From Podarcis bocagei (lineage: Eukaryota), in assembly GCA_964188305.1 (NCBI GenBank), contig OZ076885.1: 64,000 nucleotides of DNA; one strand, given 5' to 3'. The notes beneath the pieces are model-generated. The model saw only the letters and a list, made by a program, of their open reading frames with translations. It did no database searches and had not been told where the DNA came from. Positions 24,201-28,316 of this stretch are shown here, piece after piece. The position numbers and the translations under genes are program-made. The number at the start of each line of letters is the position of its first letter. The stretch's first letter is position 1.

Positions 24201-24836
24201 ATGCCTGTTCAGCAACAGCAAGGCCATAAGAATTACCCCTGTGAAAGGCTGCATGGAGCCAATTGGGAAGCCTGGTCAAAACGCATGTATTACTGGCTGG
24301 CAGAAAAGCAACTATGGGAAAGTACACAGGCTGAAACAGGCTTTGCCCAGCCCATTAAGAAGTTTACAGGCGCAGTGGAGGCTTGTGAAGGAGACGTGGC
24401 TGATGCTCTAGAGAAGCCCTGGGTAGCGTGGCAGCCACTGAAGACAGCATGTCAGGCCACAGTGGCAGCCAGACCAGAGGGGGCTGGAAGCCCAGAAGGG
24501 GCTGTGGGACGCCCAGAAAGCCCAGAGGGGGCTAGAGGATGCCCAGAAAAAGTACCAAGCCCAGAGGGGGCTGAGGCTGTTTTGGGAAGCTGTTTCTACG
24601 CTTCAATAAATCTGTGTGATGGACTGTGGGCTGGAGAGAGGCTGAGAGCTGGGAAGAGGAAGGCAGTTACAAGTTGTTCCTCAGGCAGCAGAGCACCCAG
24701 AAGTGGGGGTGCAAGCCAGGCAAGCCGTTCCAAGAGCTCTAAGAAAGCCAAAGTCTCCAAGAGTTGTTTGTGTTCTGAGGCGAAGTCCAACCGCAAAAGG
24801 CATTGCCCTGCAATTGGCAGCTGGATGCAAGGCTAA
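24201..24836 (+). CDS. 211-aa ORF resembling a Ty1/Copia gag N-terminus, with PEGA repeats, captured inside the ERV
   Basis: ERLHGANWEAWSKRMYYWLAEKQLWE resembles the Copia gag N-terminal (DUF4219-like) motif; degenerate knuckle CLCSEAKSNRKRHCP. Confidence 0.5.
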   Translation: MPVQQQQGHKNYPCERLHGANWEAWSKRMYYWLAEKQLWESTQAETGFAQPIKKFTGAVEACEGDVADALEKPWVAWQPLKTACQATVAARPEGAGSPEGAVGRPESPEGARGCPEKVPSPEGAEAVLGSCFYASINLCDGLWAGERLRAGKRKAVTSCSSGSRAPRSGGASQASRSKSSKKAKVSKSCLCSEAKSNRKRHCPAIGSWMQG

Positions 24837-24842
24837 TGTCCA

Positions 24843-26101
24843 GAAGTTGAGACATTACTGGAAGCAGTATGGGGTCCCGAAGAGATTGCCGTGATGCACT
24901 GCAAAGGCCATGGGAGAGGCCGGGACATGGTCACTAGGGGCAACCGGAAGGCAGACAACGCGGCCCGTGAAGCAGCTTTGAAACCTCCACCAGCACTCAA
25001 CGCAGCCCTCATCCCACAACTCACTCCAGACGATGTGGAACCACGCTACACACCGGAGGAGCAACAGTGGGCACGCCAGGAAGGAGTAACACTCCAGGAG
25101 GGATGGTTCCGTCTACCAGAAAACCATGTGTTTCTGCCCCAACATCTGGCTAGCGTGATTGTGAAGAATTACCACAAGTCCACTCATCTAGGGGGTCCAG
25201 CTGCCAGAGCACACCTTGGGAGACTTTTCTATATCACTAACCTTTCTCAACTAGTTGCTGCTATATCCCAGAGGTGTGTCCTGTGCGCCAAGAACACCCC
25301 CAGACAAGGCCACCTCCCTCCGCTGGGTGTACAACACGTGGGCTTCACCCCTATGGAGAGCCTGATTGTGGACTTCACTGAATTGCCTCCAGTTAGGGGT
25401 ATCAAATACCTGCTTGTGTTTGTCTTCACGCTGACGGGCTGGACAGAGGCATACCCCATTAGAACAGAGATACCTCGTGAAGTGTCCAAGAAACTGTTAC
25501 ATGAACTCATACCCCGATTTGGCCTCCCCAGAAGTATTGGCAGTGACAATGGCCCTGCCTTCATTGATAAAGTTGTACAAGAAGTGTGCAAGGCGCTGCA
25601 GATAAACTGAAGGTTACACGCAGCCTACAGACCCCAGAGTTTGGAAAAACCTGAGCGTATGAATCGCACCTTGAAGGCCCACTTGGCCAAGTTGACCCAG
25701 GAGCCGGGACTACACTGGATAGATGTCCTACCCATTGCCTTGTTTCGAATTTGGAGTGCTCCAACCAAGAAACTGATACTATCACCCTTTGCACTTTTCT
25801 ATGGCAGACCAACCCCTTTCGTCCGAGACATCCCCGCCAGTTTGGGGCGGGTGGGAGATCACATCACTCAGGAACAAGTGCAATTCCTGTCCCCGTGTGT
25901 GTTTGCTTCCCTTTCCAGGTACTACCTCGAGCCTACACCGTGCAGTCTCGCTGAGCCGGTCCACCAGTTCCAGCCGGGTGACAGCGTGGAAGCGCAACCC
26001 CCCTCATCCCTAAGTGGCGAGGCCCGTATACCGTCCTCCTCTCCATCCCAACTGCGGTGAGAGTAGCCGACGTGATTCCCTGGGTGCATCACACGCGTCT
26101 G
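24843..26101 (+). pseudogene. pol: ERV pol fragment: RNase H C-terminus and integrase (in-frame stop at 25608-25610, frameshift near 26000)
   Basis: LLEAVWGPEEIAVMHCKGH...GNRKADNAAREAA; HHCC (YHKSTHLG/CVLC); DDE (IVDFTELP, SDNGPAF, ERMNRTLK); GPY/WVHH C-terminus. Confidence 0.92.
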
Positions 26102-26233
26102 ATCATCACCTTGTGTCTGACGCTACCGGAAACGCGTTGGGCCACGGGCAACGTGATCCTGCGACTGATCATCACAAGGACTTTCACAAGGACTTTCCCC
26201 TTTTCTCTATAATGTTCTGTATTGATTTGCTCT

Positions 26234-26536
26234 ATGTCCTATTGCCCTGACCCCACCGAGCCATACCGACCCTATTGGCCTGCGGACCTCTGCTACGACT
26301 GGTTCGTCTTGCCAGTGGTAAGAAACGGCGTGCTCATTGGCTATTGGGAACAGGGCTTTGATGAGGTTGCCGTATTGAAACATCCCACTACCCCACTGTG
26401 GCTTCTCTTCCACACCACTGTCCAGCGCACATGGGTACTGCTCCTACGGGAAGTTGCAGAGACGGTCGAAATCTATCGAGTTCTGGACCGCTCTTGCTGT
26501 TGTGGGGGGGGGAACCAACTGTCACTCAGGGGGTAG
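26234..26536 (+). CDS. orphan 100-aa ORF between integrase and env (candidate retroviral accessory gene)
   Basis: ATG at 26234, uninterrupted, complex aromatic-rich sequence MSYCPDPTEPYRPYWPADLCYDWF...EIYRVLDRSCCCGGG. Confidence 0.45.
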   Translation: MSYCPDPTEPYRPYWPADLCYDWFVLPVVRNGVLIGYWEQGFDEVAVLKHPTTPLWLLFHTTVQRTWVLLLREVAETVEIYRVLDRSCCCGGGNQLSLRG

Positions 26537-27138
26537 AGCACTGTACCAACCCCATCTGGTAGACCAGGTCCTAATCTTAATCCAGGTGTTGCATGGGACG
26601 GAGCCTATCTTAATGCAAATATTGCAGGGGAGGGAGCCTGAACCAGGTGCACATTGACAAGTGCCAGTAAATCCTGCAGCCCCACCTGTGGTTGTCGTGG
26701 TGGCTCGAGCCTCCCAAAAATCCCAGAATACTGCCTGAACTACTGGGCCTGGTAACTCCACATCTAATACCCTTGAATGTGGTAGGGTATTCTTGTGGCT
26801 GCATAAGGGTTGCCACCCCAGGCTTCAGCCTCCATAGGCCCTGGTCAGAGACCACGTAGGTGACCTCCACCTAGTAGGACCAGCCTTTGAACTTTACAGA
26901 GTCTATTGCCATCCCTATAGCTCCTGAGGCCTAACAGTGTATCAGTGCCAGGCGGCCACTTTTCCCTGTGTAGAGTGGGAACGCTATGTGTGTAGACGCT
27001 GTTCACGCCTCAGTAGGGCCAGGAGTTAGAGGCCCACATGACCTGGCCTTCGTGGGCCCCCATCCCTTTGGCTTGTGGTATTTCTGTGTTGGTGGTACAG
27101 TTCTTTGTTCTGGGGCACCGAACATCCCTCGCATCAGG

Positions 27139-27545
27139 ATGTGGATCATACCCTGCCTCCTGATGGTTCTCACCTCTCAAATGGCCACAGGGTGGAAGGA
27201 AAACACCTTCCTGAATATGACAACAGCTGTAGCTAAGAGCCTGAACAGGTCTGAGTGTTACAGGCTGATTTGTACCACAAAATTAGTCTAGATGGTGCAG
27301 GTCTCCCCAGTGTATGTAGTTGAATTAGTTCTTAACTCCCAGGTTGGTCATGGTTAAAAGAGATTTTGCTTGTGATTTTACTTCTCTTCGTTATCGTATT
27401 ACTCTTATCATGCTTTTTGCCTTGCCTTATTCAGATTGTACGCCAAATGGTAAGCCGCTCAGTTAATGCAGCAACACGTACCTATATCCTGGCTCTCTAT
27501 GATATTGTACCTATAGGTCCATCAAGCGAAAATGGAGAACCGTGA
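27139..27545 (+). pseudogene. env: ERV env with a large internal deletion (signal peptide/SU start plus TM anchor and tail)
   Basis: MWIIPCLLMVLTSQMATG-WKENTFLNMTTAVAKSLNRSEC, then from 27336 LPGWSWLKEILLVILLLFVIVLLLSCFLPCLIQ...GEP*. Confidence 0.85.
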
Positions 27546-27565
27546 CCGGTCAGCATTTTCGTGAT

Positions 27566-27578
27566 GGAAAGGGGGGAA
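27566..27578 (+). promoter_or_regulatory. polypurine tract
   Basis: GGAAAGGGGGGAA immediately before the 3' LTR. Confidence 0.9.
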
Positions 27579-28312
27579 TGGAGGGGTGAAGGTCAGGATG
27601 ACCAATGGAGAGCCAGGCTAAGAATCTCTGAAGCCATATTATAGAGCCATCTAAAAGCTAAAAGCACAAAGCCATTTTAGAAAGCAAAAGACTATTTCTC
27701 TTTCTCATGTTTGTCACTTTGCCACCTTTTGCAGAGGCAGCAAGCATGCAAGCTTGTGGGTGCAGCTAGCTTGCCCCTGCAGGAAGTTTGCCAGTTGAGG
27801 TTAAGCCATTTCTGAGAAACGACCCCTGACAAAGGCAAGTAGCAGGATGTTTGCTGACCGCCAGGCTCCAGATATAACGCTTAGGTGTGAAGTTGCTAAA
27901 CCACAAGGACATTTCTTGGAAGCGGGGGGTTCAGGGGCACTTCCTGGAACTAGTAAAGAGGTTAAGTAGATTATAAGCCAGTAGCGCCACCTAGTGGAAT
28001 AGGCAACTTGGAACCGAAAGGCCACCACCAAATTTATTCATTGGTTGAGCTTTAATGAATATGTATCAATGACCATAGGAAATTGTCAATCATTGGCTAA
28101 AGGGATGCCAAGGGGCTGAACTATGCTTTGCAGAAAGGTATATAAGTTAACTGCCCCTAAGGAGGGGTGGGCATTTTCTCTCATTTTGGCAGCTGAATGC
28201 ACCCCTTTGCTTTGCTTGTCTGACAAATAAACCAAAGTCAATAAAACTTTTGTAATTAAAATATTGCTGCCTGGATTTTTCCATTCTGGTCTGTATTCTG
28301 AAGTCTCTAACA
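27579..28312 (+). repeat. ERV 3' LTR
   Basis: Direct repeat of 21303-22036, no difference seen by eye; preceded by the PPT. Confidence 0.95.
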
Positions 28313-28316
28313 ATAT

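Follow-up and report, generated by a model that had tools for sequence, protein, structure and literature searches.

Our analysis indicates that a gammaretrovirus-like ERV lineage of Podarcis bocagei carries the start of a Ty1/Copia gag gene in place of its own NC, protease and RT sequences, and that the chimera has been amplified as a non-autonomous element. The Copia piece was probably acquired by template switching onto a co-packaged Copia RNA, and it looks like a neutral passenger, not a working gene. The copy described here lies in a window of 64,000 nucleotides (G000:C1:33914001-33978000, in a genome of 1.6 Gb), the window being the whole stretch of DNA that was analysed. It is a provirus spanning positions 21303-28312 (Table 1), flanked by a 4-bp TSD, and since its two LTRs are identical, its insertion is very young. 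These LTRs are nearest to those of family B, described below (92-94% for most of them).

Table 1. Features of the chimeric provirus (positions in the window)
Feature	Position	Strand	Remarks
Left TSD	21299..21302		4 bp (ATAT)
5' LTR	21303..22036	+	734 bp, TG...CA, identical to 3' LTR
Putative primer-binding-site region, after the LTR	22037..22060	+	Proposed from position and resemblance to parent ERV
Splice donor of ERV leader	22279..22285	+	Family RNA reads end here; two are joined to 25942
ERV gag start (matrix remnant)	22621..22802	+	75% to parent ERV gag
Second foreign insert	22803..23834	+	Typical of family A
ERV capsid C-terminal remnant and linker before NC knuckle	23860..24200	+	Gag_p30 E 9.5e-11; 83-85% to parent
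5' junction	24190..24201	+	12-nt word GGGGGAGGAAGA common to parent ERV gag and Copia start region
Copia gag fragment (ORF codons 1-201)	24201..24804	+	Sense, out of frame with ERV gag
Crossover from family A to family B sequence	24406..24422	+	Beside the ~70-nt deletion of family A; from informative sites
PEGA repeats	24473..24575	+	Short internal expansion of donor gag sequence, differing between copies
Degenerate knuckle	24763..24809	+	Aligned to CCHC knuckle of related Copia gags; decay already in donor lineage
3' junction and out-of-frame ERV RNase H	24805..24836	+	Last ten ORF codons and stop; 97% to parent over 32 nt
ERV RNase H-integrase remnant	24838..26102	+	After ~105-nt deletion; stop 25608-25610; 88% to parent; Pfam rve, zf-H2C2
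ERV pol-env region and deleted env remnants	26095..27259	+	77-78% to parent
3' LTR	27579..28312	+	
Right TSD	28313..28316		4 bp (ATAT)

Elsewhere, the window contains GC-rich tandem repeat arrays (3158-3782; periods of 102, 165 and 56 nt) and, at 8001-10000, a plus-strand skew in G and A (+0.17 and +0.15) that resembles a proviral interior.

A preliminary description of the window, made from the sequence alone, had pointed to a 211-aa ORF of Copia gag origin. This ORF (24201-24836, plus strand) sits inside the provirus, between the ERV capsid remnant and the RNase H-integrase frame, and the reported N-terminal motif, PEGA repeats, CLCSEAKSNRKRHCP stretch and degenerate knuckle are all present; a tandem repeat with a period of 30 (24488-24549) lies within the PEGA stretch. 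The segment 24201-24804 is confirmed as the start of a Ty1/Copia gag, since its DNA matches gag in a complete Copia element of the same genome (L080; blastn, 74.6% over 670 columns, gaps counted). This alignment spans the whole segment (69 differences over 176 aligned codons, ~87%), BLASTP with the ORF gives an E value of 2e-83, and a chance resemblance of motifs is ruled out by the DNA-level match. The profile support that had been expected did not materialize: in Pfam, DUF4219 is sub-threshold in the ORF (E 0.13; 12.5 bits for a cut-off of 27) and Retrotran_gag_2 is not matched, and the donor-lineage gags also have no match above cut-off to either profile. Hence, a profile search alone is insufficient to settle the origin of the ORF, whereas the DNA match did so. 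The first 131 nt, used as a query, retrieved 34 proviral copies at 98-100% followed by six loci at 86% (best 40 of 149 candidates). Some of these matches are paired 6 kb apart, but the pairs are tandem proviruses, so the idea that the 131 nt are the LTR of another element was rejected. A protein search with the ORF gave one match, a frameshifted A-type product.

L080 is a whole Copia element with frameshifts, two LTRs (4288-4667 and 8968-9337) and the Copia-type order LTR-gag-PR-IN-RT-RNase H-LTR. Among 20 Copia elements drawn from the RVT_2 and DUF4219 match lists, six match the segment at 72-74%, gaps included, and encode uninterrupted polyproteins of 1438-1548 aa; in two of them (L183 and L188; segment match of 72-73%), rve precedes RVT_2 (E ~1e-72). 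Copia elements are abundant in this genome (3287 RVT_2 candidates) and their LTR pairs are frequently 99-100% identical. The donor family is identified, L080 being ~13% diverged from the captured piece. The exact donor was found neither with L080 as a query, which gave near-identical copies on C19 (best 40 of 236 candidates), nor by a sequence-pattern search, which gave one family B copy alone. L080, which among the Copia copies found is nearest to the donor, is flanked by telomere-like repeat tracts, and this unit occurs at no fewer than 40 near-identical C19 sites (L080, L142-L171).

The ORF descends directly from the N-terminus of a Ty1/Copia gag (Pfam DUF4219, Retrotran_gag_2, zf-CCHC); it has 18 of 35 N-terminal residues in common with L184, a Copia element whose gag retains Retrotran_gag_2 (E 7.8e-34) and the CCHC knuckle. 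Pfam detects neither of them in L080, L183 and L188. In contrast to typical Copia gags, ~45 capsid-region residues are gone and the knuckle is degenerate in the donor lineage, as indicated by alignment with L184 and L186; the donor gag was therefore defective before capture, and 24 further residues are absent from the window copy. By the same alignment and Pfam, the complete capsid region and CCHC knuckle of a functional Copia Gag are lacking in the ORF. Six young Copia elements with an open pol have a gag deprived of part of the capsid region and of the CCHC knuckle (L175, L180, L181, L183, L185 and L188), and three more lack part of the capsid region (L178, L182 and L186). These gag-defective young lineages may depend on relatives with an intact gag, for example L184.

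The parent ERV family was recognized from three of 20 sampled Gag_p30 loci, which match the capsid end of the window provirus at 83-85%. It has a gag of up to 615 aa, an in-frame stop, a pol of 1206 aa and an env, with the domains Gag_MA, Gag_p30, zf-CCHC, RVP, RVT_1, RNase_H, rve and MLVIN_C; the env match is weak (TLV_coat, E 0.022). From these domains and the gag-stop-pol layout, it is assigned to the gammaretrovirus-like (class I) ERVs. Compared with the parent element L212, the window provirus lacks positions 3706-6038, i.e. 2.3 kb including the NC knuckle, the protease, the RT and the start of the RNase H, and the Copia piece occupies this gap in sense orientation. The proposed replacement of NC-protease-RT thus holds, as does recombination between two LTR superfamilies, which is demonstrated by the donor match, the parent match and the junctions. 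Two details of the preliminary description had to be revised. The ERV RNase H does not restart at about 24843 but at 24805, inside the ORF. Furthermore, the statement that the ORF is open while the ERV genes are broken was overstated, since a 257-aa RNase H-integrase frame is unbroken downstream and the ORF itself is cut short in most ATG-bearing copies.

The junctions are common to the sister proviruses examined. At the 5' junction, GGGGGAGGAAGA is present in both the parent ERV and L080, its last letter being the A of the Copia ATG. It is one of five exact words of at least 12 nt shared by the 9.2-kb parent and the 5-kb Copia, and an overlap of at least 12 nt was obtained in none of 1,000,000 random breakpoint pairs. 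The 3' join (24804/24805) shows an overlap of five exact nt within an 8-nt patch, which is weak since 0.55% of random pairs reach five. Internal replacement with shared words at both joins (12 nt and 5 nt) matches the pattern of capture by template switching. The reading frame of the Copia ATG differs from that of ERV gag, which rules out an in-frame ERV-Copia Gag fusion. All 82 chimeric sequences compared, a sample in which some overlap the same locus, carry only the part of Copia corresponding to L080 4848-5500, with no Copia LTR, leader or pol. The search for an LTR or TSD proper to the segment, as expected for a later nested insertion, found none; an intact nested Copia is rejected because the segment has no LTRs of its own, 2.3 kb of ERV are missing and the host element is discontinuous.

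The chimeras fall into two families. Family A, defined by the 5' junction and the ATG, comprises 34 loci (35 of 35 candidates were scored, the 35th being non-proviral), and family B at least 38 loci (best 40 of 267 candidates), its marker insert being found at ~77 non-host loci by hand count. In family B, the Copia piece begins near codon 41, directly after parent RT sequence (5515-5674) in colinear order, and retains ~70 nt that are deleted in family A. Both families share the 3' junction and form one clade relative to Copia (support 100/98; tree of 24 rows, including 10 B rows and 7 Copia rows, with a midpoint root for drawing only). One capture is therefore the simplest account. Moreover, dS between A and B is ~0.15 in their common piece, so the capture is far older than the current burst. 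The window provirus follows A up to 24406 and B from 24422; judged by these informative sites, it is a recent A/B recombinant. Three loci (L076, L077 and L078) are tandem chimeric proviruses ~6 kb apart that share the middle LTR.

LTR pairs are 99.1-100% identical at 15 of 18 chimeric loci (the others being one false pair and two loci without a pair). TSDs of 4 bp were called at 12 of these 18 loci and of 5 bp at none, six having no call, whereas 20 Copia loci gave TSDs of 5 bp in ten cases and of 4 bp in none, with no call for the other ten. Chimeras were therefore mobilized by an ERV integrase, and mobilization by a Copia integrase is ruled out by TSD length. Lacking RT and protease, but dispersed with young LTR pairs and ERV-type TSDs, the chimeras are non-autonomous ERVs mobilized in trans, and deletions are common in both families.

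Other foreign sequences are carried by the same lineage. For instance, family B harbors a ~0.95-kb insert of the host gene GOLGB1 (giantin) that replaces capsid-to-RT sequence (L062:3243-4169, L064:3121-4156; host source G000:C1:59929807-59931565). At all 14 loci read, the exon ending at C1:59929909 is joined to the next exon at 59930639, the ~730-nt intron being absent; in L073, the join lies exactly at the splice site. The GOLGB1 reading frame is broken in the copies read. Hence, this lineage captures RNA, which within this genome gives template-switch capture its strongest backing; intron loss is a mark of RNA capture for the GOLGB1 piece, the Copia piece containing no intron. In family A, the middle of the second insert (23007-23463) matches one non-proviral locus at 82% (L219; G000:C13:50188255-50188727), a degenerate and internally repetitive tandem stretch without long ORF. 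In addition, this family carries RNase H-integrase linker pieces from a second ERV family (L079:5970-6250 compared with L215 and L195, 85-91%).

These data are best read as template switching onto a co-packaged Copia RNA, the route that the preliminary description had proposed and the best supported one, although it is inferred and has a rival in nested insertion followed by deletions. A gamma-like ERV would have packaged a Copia transcript. During minus-strand synthesis, the RT would have quit the ERV RNA in the RNase H, copied ~600 nt of Copia gag and re-entered ERV gag at the common 12-nt word, a jump that would have dropped the 2.3 kb comprising the NC knuckle, the protease, the RT and the start of the RNase H. 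Since LTRs, leader and integrase ends would have been kept, related open-frame ERVs could have copied the chimera in trans as presumed helpers. The chimera would then have diverged into A and B, both gaining further foreign RNA and recombining together, and the open frame of the window copy would be a by-product of the A/B crossover.

The rival, which we consider rather unlikely but the most serious of the alternatives, is the insertion of a whole Copia element, oriented alike, into the pol of a provirus. A deletion would have joined its gag to the ERV RNase H, removing the Copia pol and 3' LTR, and two left-side deletions would have produced the joins to ERV gag in A and to ERV RT in B. Such a history dispenses with co-packaging of two separate RNAs and agrees with the abundance and youth of Copia in this genome and with the frequent deletions in the chimeric families. 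It also explains in fewer steps the RT-to-Copia join of B, and the 5' junctions (parent 3706 and 5674) both lie upstream of the common 3' junction (6038) in colinear order. The shared words at the joins do not discriminate between capture and nested insertion, as microhomology also steers deletions. However, three precise deletions would be needed, each erasing every LTR trace, and Copia LTR, leader and pol are absent from all 82 chimeric sequences compared. Furthermore, the same lineage captured a spliced GOLGB1 mRNA, which is incapable of self-insertion, and the RT piece of B can derive from a later switch to helper RNA, A likewise holding pieces of a second ERV.

A retained function of the Copia piece appears improbable, well behind nested insertion. 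Under this view, a retrovirus lineage would have acquired 600 nt from the start of a Copia gag by way of a co-packaged RNA, and part of them would still serve it: the first 85-95 codons might encode a truncated Gag that disturbs Copia particles, or the RNA might act as a module for packaging or dimerization. If so, a working module would have been transferred between two LTR superfamilies within the vertebrate germ line. In its favor, 28 of 30 A-type copies have an open frame over the first ~85 codons from the ATG, but these copies are young and were chosen by likeness to this very region, so that an intact frame is what one would expect. The common 3' part is retained in both families; however, B is devoid of the ATG and of the first 40 codons, and yet has more copies. 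Every scorable copy of B stops 39 codons into the piece. Among the 30 copies having the ATG position, window copy included, three reach the stop of the window copy, 14 end at 95 aa (one 95-aa copy being without ATG), 12 at 139 aa and one at 31 aa. The importance that the preliminary description implied for the open ORF is not supported: 27 of the 30 copies with the ATG have it cut short.

Comparisons between A and B gave dN/dS of 0.68-1.02 (11 non-independent comparisons) with intervals that all include 1, in a test of low power (intervals of ~0.3-1.9). As controls, Copia RT gave 0.09-0.19, and ERV integrase and capsid gave 0.13-0.15, whereas constraint on the donor gag is itself loose (0.35-0.73). 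Codons 1-45 compared with L080 give a dN/dS of 0.10, which favors function but includes pre-capture Copia evolution, inseparable from what followed the capture. Hence, with three of 30 frames open and intervals spanning 1, the ORF shows neither mark of a captured gene under selection at the power of this test: it is under no detectable selection. Family RNA is in sense direction and at low depth, two RNA runs giving 77 and 111 reads that map to the internal region, almost all in one direction. Depth over the Copia piece is ~0.4-3, these reads being not assignable to the window copy. The leader splice donor at 22279 is used in RNA reads, and no splice joint into the Copia ATG is listed in these two runs of low depth. 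Moreover, 30 ATGs precede the ORF in the transcript and its frame differs from that of ERV gag, so that the ORF is presumably not translated; the ERV-type TSDs also argue against a function of the Copia piece. No new gene or function is indicated by the chimera.

Least probable of all is a patch made at the DNA level in a provirus already present (double-strand break repair with Copia cDNA or ectopic DNA), followed by amplification: replacement with microhomology is generally known to mark such repair too, but several independent foreign pieces, all internal, in one small lineage fit repeated reverse transcription better than rare repair at a single locus.

The mechanism is known but the donor is unusual: examples of capture by LTR elements and ERVs have been published, some of them from reptiles. 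A study of LTR-mediated retroposition (PMC5131818, Genome Res 2016) describes partial foreign RNAs that replace internal ORFs, with microsimilarity at the joins (median of 6 bp), several donors per element and secondary amplification as non-autonomous elements, all of which recall our chimera. However, host mRNAs are captured in the cases considered there, whereas our chimera took its piece from another LTR superfamily and occurs at more than 70 loci in two families. Crocodilian ERVs (PMC4299795) carry KIT ligand (CrocERV29) and nectin3 (CrocERV31), and are likewise reptile lineages with a captured foreign ORF, capture usually costing a retroviral domain. Nevertheless, these are host genes under purifying selection, in contrast to the transposon fragment without detectable constraint found here. 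Retroviruses also take retroelement RNAs into their particles and incorporate host sequence at sites of fortuitous microhomology, an example being MLV with VL30 (PMC4997597). VL30 is, however, retrovirus-like, whereas Copia belongs to a remote superfamily that differs in gene order and has TSDs of 5 bp. In the accessible literature, which leaves most subscription journals, Repbase and Dfam outside its scope, we found no report of a Copia sequence captured by a retrovirus.

This is a well-resolved natural transfer of sequence from Copia to a retrovirus, for which a single genome provides the donor family, the parent family, both junctions and the descendants. The transfer implies that RNAs of both elements were present together in germ-line cells and, if our preferred interpretation holds, inside one particle, a step presumed in accounts of module swapping between retroelements. 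With spliced GOLGB1 and the other inserts, the lineage constitutes a countable record of ERV captures. In practice, repeat libraries will split such elements or mislabel them as Copia. Contigs under two other organism labels also span the 5' junction (X17 record 5 and X20 record 12), and another contig from this set spans the 3' junction (X17 record 6).
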